Assembly: GCA_028817775.1 (NCBI GenBank)
Contig: JAPPOW010000177.1
Location: 1-34,899 of the forward strand
Direction: 5' to 3'
Source of the DNA: Candidatus Melainabacteria bacterium
Lineage (GTDB): Bacteria > Cyanobacteriota > Vampirovibrionia > LMEP-6097
Length of the DNA: 34,899 nt
Positions within the stretch are counted from its first letter, which is position 1. The number at the start of each line of letters is the position of its first letter. A program made the translations under genes and the position numbers. The notes beneath the pieces are model-generated. The model had not been told where the DNA came from, searched no databases, and was given only the letters and a program-made list of their open reading frames with translations. Positions 8,810 to 32,718 of the stretch are shown here, piece after piece.

Positions 8810-8858
8810 TTTTTGGCTTCCCGGGTACCCCAAATTGGGGTACCCGGGAAGCCAAAAA
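8810..8858. repeat. perfect 49-bp palindrome (23-bp stem, 3-nt loop) in the divergent flhA / ORF8892 spacer
   Basis: Bases 8810-8832 (tttttggcttcccgggtacccca) are the exact reverse complement of 8836-8858, with loop aat. T-run on the 5' side and A-run on the 3' side, so it is not a canonical intrinsic terminator in either direction. Confidence 0.95.
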
Positions 8859-12368: not shown

Positions 12369-12403
12369 GTCATTGCAAGGAGGAACGACGAAACAATCCA
12401 GAC
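12369..12403 (+). repeat. family B repeat, single arm (copy B1)
   Basis: gtcattgcaaggaggaacgacgaaacaatccagac matches the arm consensus GTCATTGC(G/A)AGG...CGA(A/C)GCAATCCAGA. It lies between the pilin-like stop and the OppA-like ATG. Confidence 0.8.
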
Positions 12404-12408
12404 ATAAG

Positions 12409-14001
12409 ATGAAGAGCAAAATTAACAACTGGATCACTTCCTCGCTCTGCGCGCTCCTCGTGATGACGATCTGCTCATGTAGCAAAATCAATGAGAGTGA
12501 TACTCTACGCATGAATCTTGGCACCGAGCCACCAAGTTTGGATTGGAATATTCTTAGTGATTACAATTCAATGGAAATCGTTGCCAATATCATGGTTGGG
12601 CTAAGTAGATTTTCAGTTAATGAAGAAGGTGAAGCGATCTCAGTGCCTGGCTGCGCCAAGAGCTGGCAGATCAGTAAGGATGGTTTGACTTATAGCTTCC
12701 AACTGGACCCAAAAGCCCGCTGGACTGATGGTAAACAAGTCACTGCCCAGCATTTCATTGATTCTTATACCAGGCTATTGGACCCAGCTACTGCAGCGCC
12801 CTATGCTGGTTTACTCTCAATGATTGATCTTAAAAATAGCAAAGCAATTAACGATCAAAACTTAATCATTAAACTAAAATACCCTGCACCATATTTTATT
12901 CATCTCAGTTCTTCAGTGATTACTTATCCCATCCGGCTTGATTTGATCAAGAAATATGGCAAACAGTGGACTGACCCCGAGAACTTGGTGAGCAACGGAC
13001 CTTATAAATTAAAACAATGGCAACATGAATACAAAATCCTACTTGAACGTAACGATGATTTTTTTCAAGAGCCTGCCAAAATCCAATACCTCAAATATTT
13101 CATGGTGGCAGAGCAAGCCAGCGCCTATACTTTATTCCTCAACAACCAGTTTGATTGGATAGATGGTCGTTCGATTCCTGCAAGTGAACACAAAAACCTA
13201 AGCAAGGAAGCCGAACGCCATCTACTCCTGCGCAATAGCTTTGTTGGTTTCAATCATCAACGCCAGCCACTTGATGATGAGCGAGTACGCCAAGCTATGA
13301 GTTTTGCAATTGACCGCAAACTCTTTGCCCAAATCAGATCCAAGGGTGATCTTGCCAATTCAACTTGGATCCCGCCAAGTCTAGGCACTTACTTGAATAT
13401 AGAAGATCTGGCACGCAGTTTCAAAGCAAAATATCAAACTGAATTTCGTCAAGATGGTTACTACCCTCAGCTCGCTCGCAAATTATTAGCTCAAGCTGGT
13501 TACCCTGATGGATACAACTTTCCTGAACTTGAATTAGCTGTACCTAGTAGAGAAGATGTCAAATTACAAGCTGAAGCTTTGCAAGCAATGTGGCGCAAAG
13601 AACTCAATATCCAGGTCCGTATCACAACTATGGAGTGGAAAGTTTTCCTTGCTCGCCTACGCAGTGATACACCCGATCTCTTTCGCTCCAATTGGGGTGC
13701 TGACTATCCTGACCCTGATACGTTTATGAATTTATTTTTGAGCACTAGTCCGTTTAACGATGTCAAATTTCATAATGCAAAATATGATCGACTAGTCAAA
13801 GCTGCTGCACGTAGCAACAAAATTAAACAAAGACGCAAACTCTATACTCAAGCTGAAATCTTGCTCACTCAAGACCAGGTTGCAATTGCCCCACTATATA
13901 TAGATAGGCAAACAATCATTAAAAAACCATGGTTGAAGGGGTTCACCTATAGTCCTATGGATTTAGTATTTCTCGACAAAGTCGAGAAATATGCTTTATG
14001 A
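12409..14001 (+). CDS. family 5 (OppA/DppA-like) solute-binding lipoprotein, orphan
   Basis: Track ORF 12373 (TTG) trimmed to ATG 12409, because 12369-12403 is repeat sequence. Lipoprotein-type signal MKSKINNWITSSLCALLVMTICSCS. 530 aa with SBP_5-like strings (WTDG, NGPYKL, ADYPDPDTF). No permease or ATPase genes adjacent. Confidence 0.82.
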   Translation: MKSKINNWITSSLCALLVMTICSCSKINESDTLRMNLGTEPPSLDWNILSDYNSMEIVANIMVGLSRFSVNEEGEAISVPGCAKSWQISKDGLTYSFQLDPKARWTDGKQVTAQHFIDSYTRLLDPATAAPYAGLLSMIDLKNSKAINDQNLIIKLKYPAPYFIHLSSSVITYPIRLDLIKKYGKQWTDPENLVSNGPYKLKQWQHEYKILLERNDDFFQEPAKIQYLKYFMVAEQASAYTLFLNNQFDWIDGRSIPASEHKNLSKEAERHLLLRNSFVGFNHQRQPLDDERVRQAMSFAIDRKLFAQIRSKGDLANSTWIPPSLGTYLNIEDLARSFKAKYQTEFRQDGYYPQLARKLLAQAGYPDGYNFPELELAVPSREDVKLQAEALQAMWRKELNIQVRITTMEWKVFLARLRSDTPDLFRSNWGADYPDPDTFMNLFLSTSPFNDVKFHNAKYDRLVKAAARSNKIKQRRKLYTQAEILLTQDQVAIAPLYIDRQTIIKKPWLKGFTYSPMDLVFLDKVEKYAL

Positions 14002-14002
14002 A

Positions 14003-14120
14003 GCCTTCGGCTTCTGCACATGGCACTTCGTGCCTGCGTATGGGCTTAACGCCCTGCTTCTACAGCGAAGCATAAGCAGGAGCAGAGCTCCATGTGCAGC
14101 TTGCAAGGCAAGCATATGCC
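14003..14120. repeat. family A nested-palindrome repeat, copy A1 (degenerate right arm)
   Basis: Shares the leading hairpin gaagcc-ttc-ggcttc and the core GCAGGAGC-aga-GCTCCATGTGCAG. It also shares a 24-nt identity (ctgcacatggcacttcgtgcctgc, 14014-14037) with copy A4 (28984-29007). Confidence 0.8.
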
Positions 14121-14835: not shown

Positions 14836-14935
14836 GTCATTGCGAGGAACGCAGTGGCGAAGCAATCCAATCCACAGACTTAAACAATCCACTAGATTGC
14901 TTCCCGCCACGCCTTTGGCTCGCGGTCGCAATGAC
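14836..14935. repeat. family B repeat, full two-armed palindromic copy (B2)
   Basis: Left arm is gtcattgcgaggaacgcagtggcgaagcaatcc. The right arm ends in ggtcgcaatgac. The copy fills the convergent spacer between the LysM gene and the 247-aa gene. Track ORF 14840-15082 is merely its translation. Confidence 0.88.
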
Positions 14936-16349: not shown

Positions 16350-16466
16350 AAGCCTACGGCTTCTGCAGAATGGTCACTTCGTTCCCTGCAATATGCTACG
16401 CTGCTGTCAGCAGGCGGAGCCATAAGCAGGAGCATAAGCTCCATCTGCAGGGAACGAAGTGACCAT
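16350..16466. repeat. family A nested-palindrome repeat, copy A2 (best preserved)
   Basis: Perfect 21/21 terminal inverted repeat: atggtcacttcgttccctgca (16370-16390) versus tgcagggaacgaagtgaccat (16446-16466). Leading hairpin aagcc-tac-ggctt. Inner stem ggagc-ataa-gctcc. The copy ends 5 nt before the TrpD-like ATG. Confidence 0.92.
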
Positions 16467-16471
16467 TTGCC

Positions 16472-17452
16472 ATGACCCCAAGTAGCCTATTTCATTCACT
16501 ACCAACCATGCCAGAAGCTGAGCTGCTGGAGTTCATTGAAAGCTCGCACAATTTTAGTGTTAATCAAATTCTTGATTACTTAGACTATATCTATGAGCAA
16601 GCGCCGCCAATTGATATTGGTGAGAGTATTTATGACTGCTGTGGCACTGGTGGTGATGCAGCCAATACTTTTAATATCTCAACCACTACTGCAATAGTAG
16701 CTGCGGCCGCTGGAATCAAAGTTTGTAAAAATGGCGGTCGTTCAAGTAGCAGTACTACTGGTTCAGTTGATGTGCTTGAAGCTCTAGGCTTAAATCTTGG
16801 TGCCAAGCTGGAAACGAAACTTATCGGGCTTGAAAAATATAACTTGGCTTTCTACTCAAGCAATGTTTCAGCAGAATTATTAGCACCAATCAAACAAGTT
16901 TGCCGCAAACACAAACTTACTAGCTTCTTGTCATTGCTTGGACCAATAGCTAGCCCAGTCAAGCTTACCGGACAGATAGTAGGCGTGGGGCAAGAAAACT
17001 GGTTTGGCACCATGGTTGATTTACAGACTAAATTAATAGAACGAGGCTTACGCCAAAAAGCAGCTGTGCTGATTTCAGAATTTGCCGATGGCGCTAAACT
17101 CGATGAATTAAGTAGCGCCTCGCGCTCCAAAATTGTTTTGCTAAATAAAGAAGGCTCTAAAGAATTTCAGTTTGACCCCAAAGATTTTGATCTTGACGAT
17201 AAGAAAGAAGATTTGCAGGGCGGTGCCGATCATCAAGCCAATGCTCAAATTATCCTAGAGACTCTCGGTCATTGCGAGCCCCTGCCAAGCAATCCAGATC
17301 CAAAAATTAGAACAGTCGCTCTCAATGTAGCCTTGTTACTTTACCTGCAAGATCAAAGCCAAGAATTAAGTCAATACTTCCAAACAGTGATTGAAATAAT
17401 AAGCAGCGGCAAAGCCCTAGAAAACTTTGAGAGATTTAAAGGTATTGTATAA
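16472..17452 (+). CDS. anthranilate phosphoribosyltransferase family (TrpD-like, glycosyltransferase family 3) protein
   Basis: 326 aa. PRPP-binding CCGTGGDAANTFNISTTTA, and KNGGRSSSSTTGSVDVLEALG (compare KHGNRxxSSxxGSADVLE in TrpD). No other trp genes in the window. Confidence 0.75.
   Translation: MTPSSLFHSLPTMPEAELLEFIESSHNFSVNQILDYLDYIYEQAPPIDIGESIYDCCGTGGDAANTFNISTTTAIVAAAAGIKVCKNGGRSSSSTTGSVDVLEALGLNLGAKLETKLIGLEKYNLAFYSSNVSAELLAPIKQVCRKHKLTSFLSLLGPIASPVKLTGQIVGVGQENWFGTMVDLQTKLIERGLRQKAAVLISEFADGAKLDELSSASRSKIVLLNKEGSKEFQFDPKDFDLDDKKEDLQGGADHQANAQIILETLGHCEPLPSNPDPKIRTVALNVALLLYLQDQSQELSQYFQTVIEIISSGKALENFERFKGIV
17268..17298 (+). repeat. family B repeat arm embedded in frame in the TrpD-like CDS (copy B6)
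   Basis: gtcattgcgagcccctgccaagcaatccaga, read in the CDS frame as G-HCEPLPSNPD. It has the GTCATTGCGAG head and AAGCAATCCAGA tail of the intergenic copies. Confidence 0.75.
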
Positions 17453-19064: not shown

Positions 19065-19155
19065 GTCATTGCGAGGAGACGAAGTCGACGTGGCAATCCA
19101 ATGCATCGACTTGGCTGGTCCACTGGATTGCTTCGTCGTACCTCCTTGCAATGAC
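19065..19155. repeat. family B repeat, full two-armed palindromic copy (B3)
   Basis: Left arm is gtcattgcgaggagacgaagtcgacgtggcaatcc. The right arm ggattgcttcgtcgtacctccttgcaatgac is the reverse complement of gtcattgcaaggaggtacgacgaagcaatcc. The copy fills the convergent spacer between ung and the S8 peptidase. Confidence 0.9.
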
Positions 19156-19164
19156 CGATAACTT

Positions 19165-21063
19165 CTAATTATTTATATTAATGAGTGCTTCGTCGTAGAC
19201 TTCCTCGCCAAGACTATTAACAGCAGTAAGTCTTAAAGTATAAAGTCCATCTTTATAAGCCCGGCTATCAAAGCCTCTGAGCAAGGTACCCTTTTTCATA
19301 AAGCGCAAAGTAAAATTACCCAGTGTATCCCAAGTGCTTGGCTTAACACCTGAACCAATCTCTATGCGGTAGGACATGATATCAGTACCAAGAATTGAAC
19401 CTTTGATATTGACTAAACCGTTAATGAATTTGAGACGTGGGTATTGAAACTCTTTGACTTTCAAAGCAACTCGTGGCAAGCGATTACTAGCATCAATTGC
19501 ACCATTGAGCTGAATCAAACCTGCTCCAAGATTTTGAGAGGATTCAATTTCTAATGAATCAAGCCGCAGACGATTGACAATCTCATCCACTTTTAGTTGC
19601 GGCGATTTGGAAAGTAAGACTGCAGCTGCTCCAGCTACATAAGGAGCTGCCATTGAAGTTCCAGCTCTGACCCTATAACCAGAACTGGTTAAATCAGAAG
19701 AAAGAATATTAGGTCTACCATAACGGGTACTACCAGGTGCTACAAAATCAATATTGTAACCATAGTTGGAGAATTTTGATTTGGTCCTGCGGTTACTCAT
19801 TGCTCCAACCGCAATAACCCCTGGAAGACCAGCTGGACTAGCAATAGTACCAGCACTGACATTAGAAATATCTCTATCATCATTACCAGCAGCTGCAACC
19901 AAAACCATTTTCTTAGAGACTGCTTTAACAGTGCGCTCCAAAGCTTTACTATAAGTACTACCTGTAAATGACATATTAACCACATCGGCTCCCTTACTTG
20001 CTGCATAGAGTAATGCCTTGATCAATAAAGTAGTTTTAGTTTGTCCCGAAGTAGAAAAAACATTAATCGGCATAATTTTTGCTCTTGGTGCTGCACCAGT
20101 AATACCAATGCCATTACTCGATTCGGCTGCAATAATGCCAGCCACATGAGTGCCATGTCCAATCTTGGAGTCTAATGGATCAAAGTCCTTATGAAAGAAA
20201 TCATAACCAATTGAGCCTGGAGTAATTTCATGTTTATCTAGTTTGCCGTTGCCGTTAGAGTCCATATCCTTGAGACTCACAATGCCATCACGATTACGAT
20301 CAGGGACTATACTTGGATTAACCCAAATATTGTTATAAAGATCTGGATGATTATAATTGACTCCTGAATCAATCACGGCAACCACTATACCTTCGCCTTG
20401 AGATTGGCGCCAAGCTTGATCAACCCCAATTTCATCCAAACCCCAAAGCGCTGAATAATCTAGCTTCCAACCTGGTGTATCCTCTACTGTCTGAATCTCA
20501 GTAGCAAAATCAGCTAGCCCAGCTAATTTGTAATTTAAATTCGGTTCCACGAATTCTACCTCAGGATCAGCTTCAAGTTCTTTGATCATTAGTTTGAGCT
20601 TTTCGCACTTGGCAAGTTTCACTCGCCCTTGAGCCTGGTCAAGCCAATCAGTGAACATATTAGCTTTGGGTTCAACATTCATTAAATAAATATCTTCAAG
20701 TTCTTCAGCCATACCGTAACCCAAAACTTCCTTACGGCGTTTCTTGAGTTTAGCGTTTGGAATTAATTCACGCTTAGCAGCCTTACTGTAGTTATCAAGG
20801 TTAACCAAGGAGTGAAAAGAATTAACTCTGTAGTTGGTCGTACGAGCCCGCAAATGTTTTTCTGATTTGGCGCGGTGAAATCCTGGTGCTCGTTTTTTAC
20901 CGTGTCTGTTTTTATACTTGATGATTAATTCACCACTCGCTAAATCATCACAACTATATTGAAGTTCTTTGACTTCATGATTTACAGGCGCGTGCTCCTG
21001 GGCCGCCACTGAACTAAGCAATAGCAGCATCGAGAGCATCAAAAATATGCTTCGACGAATCAT
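19165..21063 (-). CDS. secreted subtilisin-like serine peptidase (S8 family)
   Basis: Start moved from 21108 to ATG 21063, which gives the signal MIRRSIFLMLSMLLLLSSVAA|QE. The 21108 start cannot be excluded. Catalytic triad contexts VVAVIDSGV (Asp), HGTHVAGIIAA (His) and GTSMAAPYVAGAAAVLL (Ser). N-terminal propeptide-like region and a C-terminal ~110 aa beta-rich domain. Confidence 0.88.
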   Translation of the reverse strand: MIRRSIFLMLSMLLLLSSVAAQEHAPVNHEVKELQYSCDDLASGELIIKYKNRHGKKRAPGFHRAKSEKHLRARTTNYRVNSFHSLVNLDNYSKAAKRELIPNAKLKKRRKEVLGYGMAEELEDIYLMNVEPKANMFTDWLDQAQGRVKLAKCEKLKLMIKELEADPEVEFVEPNLNYKLAGLADFATEIQTVEDTPGWKLDYSALWGLDEIGVDQAWRQSQGEGIVVAVIDSGVNYNHPDLYNNIWVNPSIVPDRNRDGIVSLKDMDSNGNGKLDKHEITPGSIGYDFFHKDFDPLDSKIGHGTHVAGIIAAESSNGIGITGAAPRAKIMPINVFSTSGQTKTTLLIKALLYAASKGADVVNMSFTGSTYSKALERTVKAVSKKMVLVAAAGNDDRDISNVSAGTIASPAGLPGVIAVGAMSNRRTKSKFSNYGYNIDFVAPGSTRYGRPNILSSDLTSSGYRVRAGTSMAAPYVAGAAAVLLSKSPQLKVDEIVNRLRLDSLEIESSQNLGAGLIQLNGAIDASNRLPRVALKVKEFQYPRLKFINGLVNIKGSILGTDIMSYRIEIGSGVKPSTWDTLGNFTLRFMKKGTLLRGFDSRAYKDGLYTLRLTAVNSLGEEVYDEALININN

Positions 21064-21116
21064 CAATTTATTTGGCTTCAAAAGAAGCTTAGTAAATAAA
21101 AACGGCATTTTAATTA

Positions 21117-21167
21117 GAAACTAGAGGGGGTAAATACCCACATGGGGTATTTACCCCCTCTAGTTTC
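21117..21167. repeat. 51-bp palindrome (perfect 23-bp stem, 5-nt loop) in the S8 / acyl-CoA dehydrogenase divergent spacer
   Basis: gaaactagagggggtaaataccc (21117-21139) is the exact reverse complement of 21145-21167. Loop is acatg. Confidence 0.95.
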
Positions 21168-21175
21168 CGCATTAT

Positions 21176-21290
21176 GGTTGCTACGCAACCTGCATATGGT
21201 CATTTCATTCCCTGCAAATGCTTCGCTGCCAGTACAGGCGGAGCCGTCCGCAGGAGCTTTAGCTCCATATGCAGGGAACAAAGCGACCAT
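21176..21290. repeat. family A nested-palindrome repeat, copy A3
   Basis: Leading hairpin ggttgc-tac-gcaacc. Arms are atggtcatttcattccctgca (21196-21216) and tgcagggaacaaagcgaccat (21270-21290), pairing 17/21 plus one wobble. Inner stem ggagc-ttta-gctcc. Confidence 0.88.
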
Positions 21291-21325
21291 ATGCTAAATC
21301 ACAAAACGGGCATATAGTATAGGTT

Positions 21326-27809: not shown

Positions 27810-27874
27810 GTCATTGCAAGGAGCTTGCGACGAAGCAATCCAGACTAGATTGCTTCACTTACGTTCGCAATGAC
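27810..27874. repeat. family B repeat, compact two-armed copy (B4)
   Basis: gtcattgcaaggagcttgcgacgaagcaatccagac followed by tagattgcttcacttacgttcgcaatgac. It fills the SLT / mrp convergent spacer, and its right arm overlaps the last 10 codons of mrp. Confidence 0.9.
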
Positions 27875-28936
27875 CGTTTGATCTAACTTAGCAACTAGGT
27901 TCTCAGCGATCTTAGTAAATGCTTTGGAAACATTGTGCTCTGAATCCATTGCGGTAATTGGTTCACCATTGTCACCACCCTGACGAACTTTAAGTTCAAT
28001 TGGGATAGCACCAAGGAAGTCGATACCAAGTTTCTCAGCTGCTGCTTGCGCTCCACCATGAGAGAAGATCTCAGAACGCTCATTACAATGCGGGCACTCA
28101 AAGAAACTCATATTCTCAATCAAACCAAGTACTGGTACTTGCATCTTCTGGAACATCATGAAACCTTTGCGAGCATCAAGCAAGGCTACATCTTGAGGAG
28201 TTGAGACAATCACAGTCCCTGAGAGTGGTACATTTTGACATAAAGTCAACTGCGCATCACTAGTACCAGGAGGAAGGTCTACTACTAGGTAATCAAGCTC
28301 ACCCCACTCAACATCACGCAAAAATTGTTTAATGACTCCATCAAGCATCGGACCACGCCAAATAGTTGGTTTATCCTCATCAACTAAAGTACCCATAGAA
28401 ATCAAGCGCACTCCATGCGCCTCTAAACTTTGAACTTTTTTGTCTTCAGTAATATGAGGCTTCTCGCTGATACCAAGCATCAAGTGCACATTAGGACCAG
28501 TGACATCAGCATCAAGTACTCCAACTTTATGACCAAGTTTACTCAAAGCAATAGCTAAGTTAATTGAACAAGTGGTCTTGCCCACTCCACCCTTGCCTGA
28601 GTTAACAGCGATGATATGCTTAATTCCCTCAACTGGCTGCTTCGGGGCAATATCACCCCTATTGGCAAGACCAGCAATTGGAGTATGCCCGCCACCATTA
28701 GCCGCAGCTGGTGCTTGAGTAGTGTAAACATCAAGCTCCTCAAAACCTTCTGACTTTAATCTAGTCTCAAGCTCAGCAATAATTTCTTGTTTCTTAGCCT
28801 GATCATTTGGATTAGTCAAAACTAAATTGAAGACTACCTTCTTATCATTTTGTACTGAAATATCTTTGAACTGATCAGCACTAAGTACTGAGGCTATGAT
28901 TTTTGTGGCTTTTTTGACTTTATTATTTCCGAACAT
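27845..28936 (-). CDS. apbC: Mrp/ApbC/NBP35-family Fe-S cluster carrier ATPase
   Basis: 363 aa. N-terminal DUF59-like ~75 aa. Deviant Walker A AVNSGKGGVGKTT. CxxC motif FFECPHCNERSEIF. Confidence 0.9.
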   Translation of the reverse strand: MFGNNKVKKATKIIASVLSADQFKDISVQNDKKVVFNLVLTNPNDQAKKQEIIAELETRLKSEGFEELDVYTTQAPAAANGGGHTPIAGLANRGDIAPKQPVEGIKHIIAVNSGKGGVGKTTCSINLAIALSKLGHKVGVLDADVTGPNVHLMLGISEKPHITEDKKVQSLEAHGVRLISMGTLVDEDKPTIWRGPMLDGVIKQFLRDVEWGELDYLVVDLPPGTSDAQLTLCQNVPLSGTVIVSTPQDVALLDARKGFMMFQKMQVPVLGLIENMSFFECPHCNERSEIFSHGGAQAAAEKLGIDFLGAIPIELKVRQGGDNGEPITAMDSEHNVSKAFTKIAENLVAKLDQTVIANVSEAI

Positions 28937-28967
28937 GAGAATGAATTATAACATTTTGGATTAGCAT

Positions 28968-29084
28968 ATGGTCACTACGCTCCCTGCACATGGCACTTCG
29001 TGCCTGCAAATGCTTCGCTGCTTGAGCAGGGCGCAGCCCATATGCAGGAGCATCAGCTCCATACGCAGGGAGCAAAGCGACCAT
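28968..29084. repeat. family A nested-palindrome repeat, copy A4 (extra internal arm)
   Basis: Arms are atggtcactacgctccctgca (28968-28988) and cgcagggagcaaagcgaccat (29064-29084). It carries a second left-arm variant, catggcacttcgtgcctgc, identical to that of A1. Inner stem ggagc-atca-gctcc. Confidence 0.88.
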
Positions 29085-29095
29085 AAGCCCACAAA

Positions 29096-30265: not shown

Positions 30266-30299
30266 GGTCCTGACGTCGTCTTCGACTCCTCAGGATGAC
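30266..30299 (-). repeat. family C repeat arm (copy C1)
   Basis: The reverse complement reads gtcatcctgaggagtcgaagacgacgtcaggacc. It lies in the 65-bp spacer between HDOD and FIST. Confidence 0.8.
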
Positions 30300-31558: not shown

Positions 31559-31593
31559 GTCATCCTGAGGAGCGCTCGCGCGACGTAAGGATC
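31559..31593 (+). repeat. family C repeat arm (copy C2)
   Basis: gtcatcctgaggagcgctcgcgcgacgtaaggatc occupies nearly the whole 41-bp spacer between rpmG and the aminotransferase gene. Confidence 0.8.
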
Positions 31594-31596
31594 TTA

Positions 31597-32718
31597 ATGT
31601 TTACAAACTTCAGACTAGAAGATTTATACAATCAAGTTGAAGCTGAAGTCAAGCTTGATATGAGTTCGGCTTGTATGCCCGCAATTTCATTACAGGAATT
31701 GGCTGCATTGAAGCCTGAGCTTGAAAATGAAATTGTCGCAACAATAATGAAGACCAAACTTGGCTATTCAAGCCAATATGGCTCAGAAGCAAGCCTTCAA
31801 GCAATCCGCAATCTCTATCGACTGGATTACTTCACTGACCTTCGCAATGACATCATGCTGACCAGTGGTGCTTCTGAAGCCATCTTCTTAGTGATGTCGA
31901 CTTTGTTTGAAGCAGGTGACAGCATCATAGTCCAGCAACCTATTTATCAATCTTTATATCAAGTTGCTGCTGATCGCGGCGTGAAAATCATTGACTGGAA
32001 CCTTGAATGTCATTGTGAGGAGAGCGGCAGCTCGACGTCACAATCTCACTGGAGCATCACCAAATTAGAGAACTTGATCAAAGCAAATCCTAAGTGCAAA
32101 GCACTAGTCATTAACAATCCAAACAACCCTGCTGGACTTGGCTTCAATGCTGATGACTTAAATCAAATTTCCAAACTACTTGAAGATAGAATTTTAATCT
32201 CTGATGAAGTATTTTTGTTCATCTCACAATCACAATTACCATCGGCTCTAGAGCATCATCACAAAGCAATAGTTATTAGTGATCTAAGCAAAAGTTTTAA
32301 TATGCCTGGTTTACGTTTAGGTTGGATACTCTGCAGCAAAGCCACGAGCCATGAGCTATCAGCCATGAGCTCGTTTAAAAACTATCTCTCACTTAGAACA
32401 AATACTCTCTCTGAAGCACTGACACCATTAGTTCTAGAATTAGCCCCCGAGCTTTGTAGGCGCAATCGAGAGCTAGTAAAGAATAATATTGATTTGATTT
32501 ACTCTCAAGAACAAGAAATTTTTGACTTAAGTCAAATAACAAGGGATAAGATAGAGGGTTTGTGTGTTTTTCCACTAGTTAAAAACCCTGAACTGGTCGA
32601 TCATCTGTGGCACAAAAATAAAACCTTCCTAGTTAAAGGTGAATATTTTGGTCATAACTGGTCAAAACACCTAAGGGTTGGACTCAAGAAAATTCCTGAG
32701 CTTGCGTTGTATACCTAG
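31597..32718 (+). CDS. PLP-dependent aminotransferase, class I/II (fold type I)
   Basis: 373 aa. NNPNNPAG, and SDLSKSFNMPGLRLGW carrying the Schiff-base Lys. Substrate specificity is not assignable. Confidence 0.85.
   Translation: MFTNFRLEDLYNQVEAEVKLDMSSACMPAISLQELAALKPELENEIVATIMKTKLGYSSQYGSEASLQAIRNLYRLDYFTDLRNDIMLTSGASEAIFLVMSTLFEAGDSIIVQQPIYQSLYQVAADRGVKIIDWNLECHCEESGSSTSQSHWSITKLENLIKANPKCKALVINNPNNPAGLGFNADDLNQISKLLEDRILISDEVFLFISQSQLPSALEHHHKAIVISDLSKSFNMPGLRLGWILCSKATSHELSAMSSFKNYLSLRTNTLSEALTPLVLELAPELCRRNRELVKNNIDLIYSQEQEIFDLSQITRDKIEGLCVFPLVKNPELVDHLWHKNKTFLVKGEYFGHNWSKHLRVGLKKIPELALYT
32009..32045 (+). repeat. family B repeat arm embedded in frame in the aminotransferase CDS (copy B5)
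   Basis: gtcattgtgaggagagcggcagctcgacgtcacaatc, read in the CDS frame as CHCEESGSSTSQS. Closely parallels the B3 left arm gtcattgcgaggagacgaagtcgacgtggcaatcc. Confidence 0.78.

Follow-up and report, generated by a model that had tools for sequence, protein, structure and literature searches.

The window, the whole 34,899-nt stretch of Candidatus Melainabacteria DNA analysed here, carries an aminotransferase gene next to rpmG and 13 copies of one REP-type hairpin repeat family, five of which overlap coding sequence (Table 1). The aminotransferase has a PF00155 domain, fold type I and a catalytic Lys in the S-x-S-K-x motif region, which places it among the class I/II PLP-dependent enzymes. Its closest solved structure is PDB 3op7 (E 2.7e-31; Foldseek TM 0.84). 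Catalytic Lys232 (SKS motif), D203, N176/N177 and R360 are conserved in the orthologue alignment, where K232, D203, N177 and R360 form invariant columns. An AlphaFold (AF2) model of the protein reached a mean pLDDT of 91.2, and the gene is apparently working.

Table 1. The aminotransferase gene and the repeat copies of the window
Feature	Position	Strand or parts	Details
Class I/II PLP-dependent aminotransferase gene, 373 aa	31597..32718	+	PF00155 E 2.5e-31, 109.6 bits
In-frame REP copy	32009..32045	+	Exact 37-nt match; single occurrence in window
Second in-frame REP copy, short subtype, antisense to gene	31820..31851	-	Leave-out covariance model 28.8 bits, E 1.4e-6
Intergenic REP, ATCCT/AGGAT stem, rpmG - aminotransferase gap	31559..31593	+	Ends 3 nt upstream of ATG
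Intergenic REP, TCCTGA/TCAGGA stem, FIST - HDOD gap	30266..30299	-	Repeat family, covariance model
Head-to-head REP dimer	27810..27874	27810-27843 (+), 27845-27874 (-)	Repeat family
Head-to-head REP dimer, intergenic	19065..19155	19065-19101 (+), 19123-19155 (-)	Between convergent UDG-like and subtilase genes
In-frame REP in TrpD-like gene (16472-17452)	17268..17297	+	Repeat family; encodes GHCEPLPSNPD
Head-to-head REP dimer, intergenic	14836..14935	14836-14870 (+), 14892-14935 (-)	Repeat family
Head-to-head REP dimer	12369..12467	12369-12401 (+), 12429-12467 (-)	Repeat family

Architecture of the repeat family

Each element, 26-45 nt long, begins with an unpaired 5' tag, (C/T)GTC, and ends in a 3' tail, CCA. 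Between them lie an outer stem of 5-7 bp whose first two pairs are A-T and T-A, an internal loop conserved as GAGGAG (5') and CGACG (3'), and a variable inner stem with a loop of 3-4 nt, mostly a G-N-A triloop. All 13 window copies carry an unchanged GTC, with C or T before it in eight of them (25 of 32 when all copies are counted). The first outer-stem pair is A-U in 31/32 copies and the second U-A in 32/32, while the tail reads ATCCAG, ATCCAA or ATCCAC in most copies. All four dimers in the window are head-to-head with the tags outside.

The case for a hairpin relies on covariation, because most single copies fold weakly and no better than shuffled sequences (z near 0). The copy at 32009-32045 alone reaches z -3.2, at -9.4 kcal/mol when folded as DNA. 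In an alignment of 32 copies, taken from this window and from related loci and itself fitted to the hairpin model, pairing in the outer stem reached 97.5 %, and 31 cells showed double changes. All 500 shuffles fell short of this, and slid controls gave a maximum of 56 %. Inner stems show free covariation, as in CGCG/CGCG, CCTGC/GCAGG and CAACC/GGTTG.

Several copies contribute to proteins. The minus copy of the dimer at 27810 forms the last nine codons and the TAG stop of an Mrp/NUBPL-like ATPase gene (27845-28936, minus strand), and the minus copy at 12429-12467 encodes the hydrophobic core of a predicted lipoprotein signal peptide (MKSKINNWITSSLCALLVMTICSC) in an SBP_bac_5 protein. At the position of the copy in the TrpD-like gene, PDB homologues of TrpD are 4-5 residues shorter. 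The consensus repeat contains a stop codon in only one of its six reading frames.

The repeat also has near-identical copies in Alphaproteobacteria, Legionella and Nostocales plasmids. Those on Novosphingobium and Methylosinus plasmids are 100 % identical (31/31 and 36/36), and copies in N. aromaticivorans match at 92-93 %. Pfam scans of 30 window ORFs detected no Y1_Tnp and no other transposase, and an Rfam scan of the whole window returned no family at the gathering threshold. A full-text literature search with the repeat string and its translations (GTCATTGCGAG, VIASEA, VIARSEA, CHCEE, SLRGA and FARNDG) found nothing relevant.

A repeat copy within the aminotransferase gene

The copy at 32009-32045 lies inside the aminotransferase ORF and introduces neither a stop nor a frameshift, as the preliminary description had stated. 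The 13 codons at 32008..32046 (+) translate as CHCEESGSSTSQS, residues 138-150. That description had also recognised the head, middle and tail of the repeat family in this string. Head GTCAT, inner motif GAGGAG...CGACGT and tail CAATC are indeed shared with the family, and the remaining architecture follows: an unpaired GTC preceded by T (TGTC), a 7-bp outer stem (ATTGTGA/TCACAAT), an internal loop GGAG / CGACG and an inner stem AGC/GCT closed by a GGCA loop. The 3' tail, ATCTCA, is degenerate relative to CCA and reads ATCCCA in the L081 orthologue. A covariance model trained on the 11 other window copies, with both copies in the aminotransferase gene excluded, scored the string at 32.6 bits (E ~1e-7), and the top non-family match in the window reached 13.5 bits. 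Judged by its sequence, the copy is a true member of the 13-copy family.

In the AF2 model, residues 138-150 are all coil and lie between a strand (130-135) and a helix (154-163) assigned by DSSP. This agrees with the earlier placement of the site after the VKIIDWNL strand and before the KLENLI helix, and with the suggestion that related aminotransferases have a short loop here: 3op7 is 8 residues shorter and orthologues are 10 shorter. The only internal segment with pLDDT <50, residues 141-146, falls within the insert. The insert thus appears in the model as a floppy loop of 13 residues, and its coil state, low pLDDT and tolerance of indels suggest that it is exposed at the surface. That it is translated is suggested by the uninterrupted reading frame and by the purely synonymous divergence described below. 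One example of a predicted tryptic peptide for this segment is IIDWNLECHCEESGSSTSQSHWSITK. When sequencing runs were searched for the insert sequence, the hits were DNA runs from coral-reef metagenomes only, with no RNA runs.

The same gene holds a second in-frame copy, at 31820-31851, which the preliminary description does not mention. It encodes (R)LDYFTDLRND(I), at residues of about 75-86, belongs to repeat family D12 and is 88 % identical to the minus copy at about 27843-27874. The stretch 31817-31851 is also matched by metagenome contigs whose flanks are unrelated. Orthologues L081 and L086 read ...SNLEPQTSN... at this site instead. From the sequence comparison, this copy replaced an ancestral loop of similar length, with no net addition.

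Filled and empty sites among orthologues

In syntenic orthologues (gene order HDOD - rpmG - aminotransferase) that lack the repeat, IYQSLYQ and INNPNNP are 39 residues apart, and in the window gene they are 49 apart. The site is empty in L085, L001 and L088, with sequences such as ...CGT CCT GAC TAT CAT TGG, relative to which the window gene gains 10 codons. A gap of roughly 10-13 aa had been proposed as a check on the insertion, and the alignment contains a 10-aa gap exactly at the insert. We also looked for the peptide in orthologues from genomes lacking the repeat and found none. Besides the window, CHCEESGSSTSQS occurs only in P0001 (99 % identical) and P0002 (66-70 % identical), and both genomes contain the same repeat family. 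A metagenome scan for nearer relatives yielded two loci, one already known and one P0003-like with an empty site.

Other lineages have unrelated peptides at the site (VIASEAKQS, RHCEPPQAAWQS or RHPEGAKRPSGSTQA) or no insert. L083, L084 and L087 carry other REP subtypes in other frames, which differ in stem (ATTGC vs ATCC), loop, length (26 to 37 nt) and head frame. Each of these copies is closer (85-96 %) to REPs elsewhere than to the other copies at the site. P0004 and P0005 retain degenerate, old-looking remnants. All filled sites end at the same position, before CAT TGG (native His-Trp), and filled and empty states are interspersed on the orthologue tree. The aminotransferase orthologue family contains at least three such insertion hot spots.

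A comparison of filled and empty sites for a target-site duplication gave no clean one. The CATTG that flanks the insert on both sides is partly native, and the L083 lengths misfit a simple duplication. The insertion was not a clean cut-and-paste event: the 37-nt element produced a net gain of 30 nt, which means that codons on its flanks disappeared or that some of the "element" belongs to the native gene.

Age and constraint of the insert

Outside the insert, the window protein and P0002/L081 are 66 % identical, and all 13 insert residues are conserved between them. The two insert sequences differ at four nucleotides, all four changes being synonymous. The chance of such an outcome without constraint at the protein level is ~0.0015. 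Among 344 thirteen-residue windows, the insert segment takes 22nd place in nucleotide identity. An orthologous intergenic REP in the same two lineages, upstream of the gene (31559-31593; copies also in L083 and L084), has diverged in its loop, an indel included. Considering that every residue is kept and only synonymous changes occur relative to an orthologue of 66-70 % identity, we conclude that the insert is old and probably under purifying selection, the latter reading being based on one sequence pair and partly confounded by REP-level conservation of the tag and internal loop. One stem pair, T8-A32 (C8/T32 in L081), was considered as a sign of selection for pairing within the gene; this was discarded as non-significant, since either position can change freely without altering the protein.

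Origin of the insert

We consider it very probable that a dispersed REP-type hairpin copy became fixed in the aminotransferase gene, was kept, and is translated as a constrained loop. The copy would have been fixed in the coding sequence in the common ancestor of the window and P0002 lineages; its 13 residues would then have been translated within the enzyme and come under purifying selection. Mobilisation presumably involved ssDNA hairpins, by analogy with REP/RAYT elements. The insert was likely kept because the repeat is stop-free in five of six frames, the frame was preserved (+10 codons) and the strand-helix loop of the PLP-binding domain tolerates changes in length. In other Melainabacteria lineages, the codon boundary just 5' of the native His-Trp is taken by other REP subtypes in other frames.

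The filled sites could alternatively descend from a single insertion in the ancestor of the subclade P0002 to P0013, followed by vertical inheritance with precise losses and divergence but without repeated insertion. This would account for the identical end point before CAT TGG and for the old appearance of the P0004/P0005 remnants, and, as filled sites alternate with empty ones across the tree, gains and losses are about equally parsimonious. We nevertheless find this history doubtful. The L083, L084 and L087 copies differ from one another in stem, loop, length and frame, and their closest relatives (85-96 %) are REPs at other sites and loci. Maintaining a perfect hairpin through compensatory changes would moreover require REP-level selection within the gene.

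In another alternative, the peptide is no longer simply tolerated but was co-opted, for instance as a Cys-His-Cys...His metal- or redox-sensitive loop or as a contact surface. Its conservation (13/13 residues kept vs 66 % elsewhere, with synonymous changes only) and its high rank among the thirteen-residue windows fit such a role. Yet that conservation is backed by two independent sequences only, other lineages have unrelated peptides or nothing at the site, and the loop has no defined structure in the model. We therefore regard co-option as improbable.

Two further alternatives to fixation of a repeat copy are barely credible. The site is a length-variable loop across aminotransferases, and a native loop might resemble the repeat by coincidence, or the family might have been born from the gene segment. 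The former is opposed by an E-value of ~1e-7 from a covariance model naive to the copy, by the presence of all three family modules in the correct order and by the empty syntenic orthologues; the repeat did not derive from the aminotransferase gene, since 100 % identical copies exist in other phyla. Finally, repeats do cause metagenome misassemblies, and metagenome contigs show a depth spike at the adjacent intergenic REP (31559-31593), indicative of a multi-copy variant, but a chimeric assembly or a decaying pseudogene is extremely improbable given that contigs of four independent metagenome runs cross the site with no indel or joint and none has an insert-free allele, that the insert is also present in P0001 (ENA) and P0002 (Logan), which were assembled independently, and that the ORF is full-length with conserved catalytic residues, a pLDDT of 91 and synonymous-only divergence.

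Implications

In-frame repeat insertion has precedents in Rickettsia and other bacteria, where selfish DNA adds peptide segments to essential enzymes without being lethal. The present case brings the phenomenon to Melainabacteria, a non-photosynthetic cyanobacterial lineage. By sequence comparison, the occurrence of different REP copies at exactly the same spot in related species is a feature beyond these known insertions. We tentatively raise the possibility that different REP subtypes inserted at the boundary 5' of the native CAT TGG on four or more independent occasions, with two more hot spots in the same gene, that this reflects site-specific integration, and that at least one insert became constrained. 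If so, CGTC-type REPs (see below) integrate site-specifically, possibly through microhomology between a CATTG target and the GTCATTG head of the element, and the series of filled and empty orthologues would allow the integration rule to be deduced from natural data. As a natural experiment, it offers at least three hot spots, filled and empty sister alleles, three frames, both orientations and one old insert. Because the repeat is conserved nearly base for base across Melainabacteria, Alphaproteobacteria, Legionella and Nostocales and has no known mobiliser, loci such as this one could help define its target rule. For annotation, VIARSEATKQS, CHCEE..., SLRGA...SNP and L(D/L)..F...RND in MAG proteins mark REP-derived segments, which include starts, stops and signal peptides.

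Comparison with known repeat systems

Rickettsia palindromic elements (RPE), reportedly described by Ogata et al. in 2000, are selfish palindromic repeats that lie in frame in housekeeping genes and are translated, occupying loops while the fold is kept. The classic case, RPE-1, is about 100-150 bp long and adds about 30-50 residues; RPE-4 and RPE-6 are short. The aminotransferase insert resembles RPE in being in frame, in corresponding to a gap in orthologues, in its coil state with low pLDDT and, judging by its pattern of divergence, in being translated. Several insertions in one gene are possible in both systems. Unlike RPE-1, the present element measures 26-45 nt and adds about 10 residues, and its host is free-living or environmental rather than an obligate intracellular alphaproteobacterium.

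In-frame insertions of MITEs and other small repeats have been described in other bacteria, for example Coxiella QMITEs (PMC5896051; review PMC10969869). The repeats of the window are likewise non-autonomous and tolerated, and extend or modify ORFs. MITEs, however, span 70-300 bp and combine target-site duplications with terminal inverted repeats of 15-30 bp (PMC5896051; PMC10969869), whereas the window element is a single 26-45 nt hairpin without terminal inverted repeats, and filled vs empty sites show no duplication.

GTAG REPs and REPINs carry a 5' GTAG tag and are mobilised by RAYT (TnpA_REP, Y1 HUH) transposases (PMC3116915, PMC2817692, PMC6006769). They share with the window family short tagged hairpins, inverted doublets, a high copy number, dispersal, compensatory stems and a presumed ssDNA-hairpin substrate. 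The tag of the window family is instead GTC(A), and the window contains no RAYT gene.

The closest match is the CGTC-tagged REP superfamily, and the window family fits most of the features given in its published description by Di Nocera, De Gregorio & Rocco in 2013 (PMC3733652). According to that description, these REPs have an unpaired terminal tag CGTC (often TGTC or CCTC), a stem of 8-9 bp that starts with complementary A-T and T-A, loops of 4-5 nt and a tail with the consensus CCA. They occur mainly as head-to-head dimers with spacers of 1-35 nt near the 3' ends of ORFs, a minority being intragenic and translated as short hydrophilic peptides (VIPAKAGI, CHSRESGDP, DSRFRGND). No transposase lies adjacent to them, no RAYT gene is known to flank them, the mobilising enzyme is not known, and Novosphingobium aromaticivorans is a host of CGTC-2 (PMC3733652). 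The 5-7 bp outer stem of the window family, which encloses an internal loop and a further stem of variable sequence, may depart from this layout, which the source draws as modular. The window family differs from this account in its high share of copies that overlap coding sequence (5/13) and in its occurrence in Melainabacteria/Cyanobacteria, outside the five phyla listed there. It agrees in the tag, the A-T/T-A start of the stem, the CCA tail, the head-to-head dimers, the location of copies near the 3' ends of ORFs, the lack of an adjacent transposase and the short peptides from intragenic copies, here VIASEAKQS, CHCEES... and DYFTDLRND. The same source includes RPE-4 (= CGTC-4) and RPE-6 (= CGTC-1) in the superfamily (PMC3733652). 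The resemblance to Rickettsia insertions that the preliminary description had noted is thus closer than it supposed, through a CGTC architecture reported to be shared with RPE-4 and RPE-6, which is the basis of the link.

The repeat family in the window

The 35-kb window holds 13 copies of a short dispersed hairpin repeat (REP), as found with a motif scan and a covariance model. Each copy scored at least 31 bits, against 12.3 bits or less for all other hits. To avoid circularity, we built the model again, using just the 11 copies that are not in the aminotransferase gene. The 37-nt string that the preliminary description had assigned to the family, and that occurs exactly once in the window, scored 32.6 bits with this model (E about 1e-7), which confirms its membership. 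A second, antisense copy in the same gene scored 28.8 bits (E 1.4e-6), and the top background match 13.5 bits. Eight of the 13 copies form four inverted doublets with outward tags.

We derived the anatomy of the repeat from an alignment of 32 copies in the window and related Melainabacteria loci. All copies share the 5' GTC, with a C or T in front of it in 25 of them. The outer stem always starts with A-T and T-A pairs, while pairs 3-5 covary (TGC/GCA, CCT/AGG, CGC/GCG, CAC/GTG). Of its cells, 97.5 % are paired, with both sides changed in 31; this covariation was matched by 0 of 500 shuffles and slid controls reached at most 56 %, in an alignment itself fitted to the model. The outer stem encloses an asymmetric internal loop that is conserved, with GAGGAG in its 5' strand and CGACG in its 3' strand. 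The inner stem is free in sequence (CGCG/CGCG, CCTGC/GCAGG, CAACC/GGTTG, GCCGC/GCGGC) and mostly capped by a GAA, GTA or GCA triloop, and the 3' tail is CCA(G). The repeat matched no Rfam family.

G-N-A triloops of the d(GCGAAGC) type form exceptionally stable DNA mini-hairpins, and those of the repeat fit a putative single-stranded-DNA form. By analogy with REP/RAYT and IS200/IS605 systems, copies may spread as single-stranded DNA hairpins recognised via the tag and internal loop.

An in-frame insertion in the aminotransferase gene

The product of the ORF around the 37-nt string (31597-32718) has 373 aa and carries an Aminotran_1_2 domain (PF00155, E 2.5e-31). Codons 32008-32046 are read without stop or frameshift as CHCEESGSSTSQS, residues 138-150. 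The copy carries every module of the family: a 7-bp outer stem (ATTGTGA/TCACAAT), the internal loop GGAG...CGACG and the inner stem AGC/GCT. It is among the most stable copies (-9.4 kcal/mol folded as DNA, z -3.2). The window sequence is present in DNA runs from coral-reef metagenomes, and contigs of four independent metagenome runs cross the site with no indel.

Related proteins occur in Melainabacteria/Vampirovibrionia/Caenarcaniphilales MAGs. Seven related contigs share the gene order HDOD - rpmG - aminotransferase with the window, so we regard their aminotransferases as orthologues. Aligning 32 sequences showed that most orthologues are gapped precisely at the insert; the catalytic and PLP-binding residues K232, D203, N176/N177 and R360 are invariant. 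At the codon level, the distance from IYQSLYQ to INNPNNP is 39 residues in alleles lacking the insert and 49 in the window, in line with the predicted gap of about 10-13 residues. The nearest solved structure, 3op7, has 8 residues fewer here. No orthologue from a genome lacking the repeat carried the same peptide.

An AlphaFold2 model built on the orthologue alignment (mean pLDDT 91.2, pTM 0.91, TM 0.84 to 3op7) places residues 138-150 in a coil that links strand 130-135 to helix 154-163, agreeing with the proposed position between the VKIIDWNL strand and the KLENLI helix. Residues 141-146 are its sole internal segment with pLDDT below 50. The orthologue gap, the modelled coil, the invariant residues and the contigs spanning the site support the original interpretation of an in-frame insertion, and the insert would be translated and exposed.

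The insertion added a net 30 nt, fewer than the 37 nt of the element, so this was not a plain cut-and-paste event: it either removed flanking codons, or some of what looks like the element (e.g. the tail CA, or CATTG) is native.

Orthologue P0002 (locus L081) has the same 13 residues; the rest of its sequence shares 66 % identity with the window protein. The two inserts differ at four nucleotides, each time at a third codon position and without altering the amino acid. Since 23 of the 117 single changes possible there are synonymous, four out of four has a probability of about 0.0015, although this argument is partly confounded by conserved positions of the repeat itself. The intergenic REP upstream of the gene is orthologous in both lineages, yet it has diverged in its inner loop and acquired an indel there. 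For this one sequence pair, these observations indicate that the in-gene copy predates the lineage split and evolves under protein-level constraint.

Recurrence at the site and other coding copies

At the same boundary, orthologues in other lineages carry other versions of the REP, and every site copy stops just short of the native CAT TGG or the corresponding codons. Among site copies, only those of the window and L081 form a pair of mutual nearest relatives (92 %). Those of loci L083, L084 and L087 each resemble REPs elsewhere, at different positions or in different loci, more closely (85-96 %) than any other copy at the site. Filled and empty states are intermingled in a neighbour-joining tree (P0003 empty versus P0004 filled, P0012 empty versus P0013 filled). 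One hot spot was probably occupied several times independently; the alternative is a single old insertion followed by losses and overwriting.

Two additional hot spots in the aminotransferase family were confirmed at the DNA level by the covariance model. The antisense copy lies in a fourth variable loop, where it replaced the ancestral segment nearly length for length rather than extending it. It is 88 % identical to the copy ending the P-loop ATPase gene and is matched by unrelated metagenome contigs with differing flanks. In L081 (about 1640-1670) and L086, the loop corresponding to residues 75-85 of the window protein instead consists of an in-frame (CCTCGAA)x3-4 heptamer repeat encoding ...SNLEPQTSN..., reminiscent of cyanobacterial STRR heptamer repeats.

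The 3' arm of the upstream intergenic REP, AAGGAT, occupies the Shine-Dalgarno position, so this hairpin could mask the ribosome-binding site. Orthologous copies are conserved in four lineages, and the annotated GTG start of L083 lies within the repeat.

Five of the 13 window copies overlap coding sequence. The repeat consensus has a stop in just one of six frames. Translation of the three sense frames and of one antisense frame yields hydrophilic peptides, and the remaining open antisense frame gives the hydrophobic LDCFVASLLAM. Solved TrpD structures (PDB) have 4-5 residues fewer at the position of the TrpD-like copy. Selection may spare only insertions that are in frame, avoid the stop-containing frame and land in loops.

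REP copies, hot spots and other features of the window and related loci
Feature	Locus	Position	Strand	Description
REP under study	Window	32009-32045	+	Aminotransferase gene
Second in-frame REP	Window	31820-31851	-	Short subtype; encodes LDYFTDLRND
Intergenic REP	Window	31559-31593	+	Stem ATCCT/AGGAT; ends 3 nt upstream of aminotransferase ATG
Orthologous intergenic REP	L081	1305-1338
Orthologous intergenic REP	L083	9979-10018
Orthologous intergenic REP	L084	4120-4153
REP, hydrophobic antisense frame	Window	12429-12467	-	Core of predicted lipoprotein signal peptide MKSKINNWITSSLCALLVMTICSC; SBP_bac_5 protein, ORF from ATG 12409
REP in frame	Window	17268-17297	+	TrpD-like (PF00591) gene; encodes GHCEPLPSNPD
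REP at gene 3' end	Window	27845-27874	-	Last nine codons (VIANVSEAI) and TAG stop of Mrp/NUBPL-like P-loop ATPase gene 27845-28936 (-)
Degenerate REP remnant	Window	19187-19217	-	13.5 bits; within 3' end of subtilase gene 19165-21108 (-)
Site copy	L083			GTC ATT GCG AGC GAA GCG AAG CAA TCT, 26 nt; head in different frame; VIASEAKQS
Site copy	L084			CCGCCGCAGGCGGCG inner hairpin; encodes RHCEPPQAAWQS
Site copy	L087			Stem ATCC/GGAT
Site remnants	L086, L089			Degenerate
Empty allele	L085/L001			CTA CGT CCT GAC TAT CAT TGG
Empty allele	L088			TTA GAA GAA AAT TAT TCT TGG
Hot spot	Orthologues	Loop between helices 32-38 and 42-52		Filled: P0002, P0005, P0009, P0013; degenerate: P0003/P0004
Hot spot	Orthologues	Loop after strand 242-246		Filled in ~12 sequences; CHPE..., CHCEPQRGAAIQ, SLRG...SNP, VIARS...QS
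Second intergenic repeat family, unrelated to REP	Window	14014-14119, 16369-16470, 21192-21294, 28964-29088		Units ~100 nt; inverted repeat of 22-30-nt arms (GCATATGGTCAC...CCCTGCA), 45-65 nt apart; one pair 100 % complementary
Perfect palindromes, intergenic	Window	8810-8858, 21117-21167		Arms 24 and 23 nt, loops 1 and 5 nt; look like candidate terminators
1836-aa ORF	Window	1124-6634	+	Adjoins flhA (FHIPEP) and proC; no Pfam match found

Comparison with known repeats

A MITE identity was rejected for the repeat, as was a GTAG REP/REPIN identity, given the different tag and no RAYT found in the window. CGTC-tagged REPs, as outlined by Di Nocera et al. (2013; PMC3733652), have a terminal CGTC, often TGTC, stems starting with complementary A and T, and a CCA tail. 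Head-to-head dimers with outward tags predominate, there is no dedicated transposase, and a minority of copies are intragenic and translated. Compared with that description, the window family shares the tag, the AT start, the tail and the dimers. Its two-tier hairpin has no obvious fit to the stem and loop dimensions published there. The peptides VIASEAKQS, CHCEES... and DYFTDLRND encoded by the present family are direct counterparts of VIPAKAGI, CHSRESGDP and DSRFRGND from CGTC REPs (PMC3733652). The same source equates the Rickettsia conorii repeats RPE-6 and RPE-4 with CGTC-1 and CGTC-4, and Cyanobacteria are absent from the hosts that it lists.

We also compared plasmids by BLAST with a short consensus and with a long consensus, the latter derived from Melainabacteria. 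The short consensus matched 31/31 at 40 or more places on one Novosphingobium resinovorum megaplasmid, and also matched plasmids of N. aromaticivorans, a CGTC-2 host (PMC3733652), Methylobacterium, Methylosinus, Legionella lytica and Nostocales. The long consensus matched 36/36 on the Methylosinus trichosporium OB3b plasmid NZ_CP023738.1 (100183-100264; H7/H18), where a long copy and an inverted short-type copy about 20 nt apart form a long-plus-short heterodimer. These matches mark the element as an ancient, cross-phylum REP, and such near-identity implies a conserved partner or horizontal spread. The copy in the aminotransferase gene is a real, well-supported instance of a known phenomenon, in-frame REP insertion, in a new lineage. 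Of most interest is the recurrence at hot spots, which might reveal how CGTC REPs integrate.
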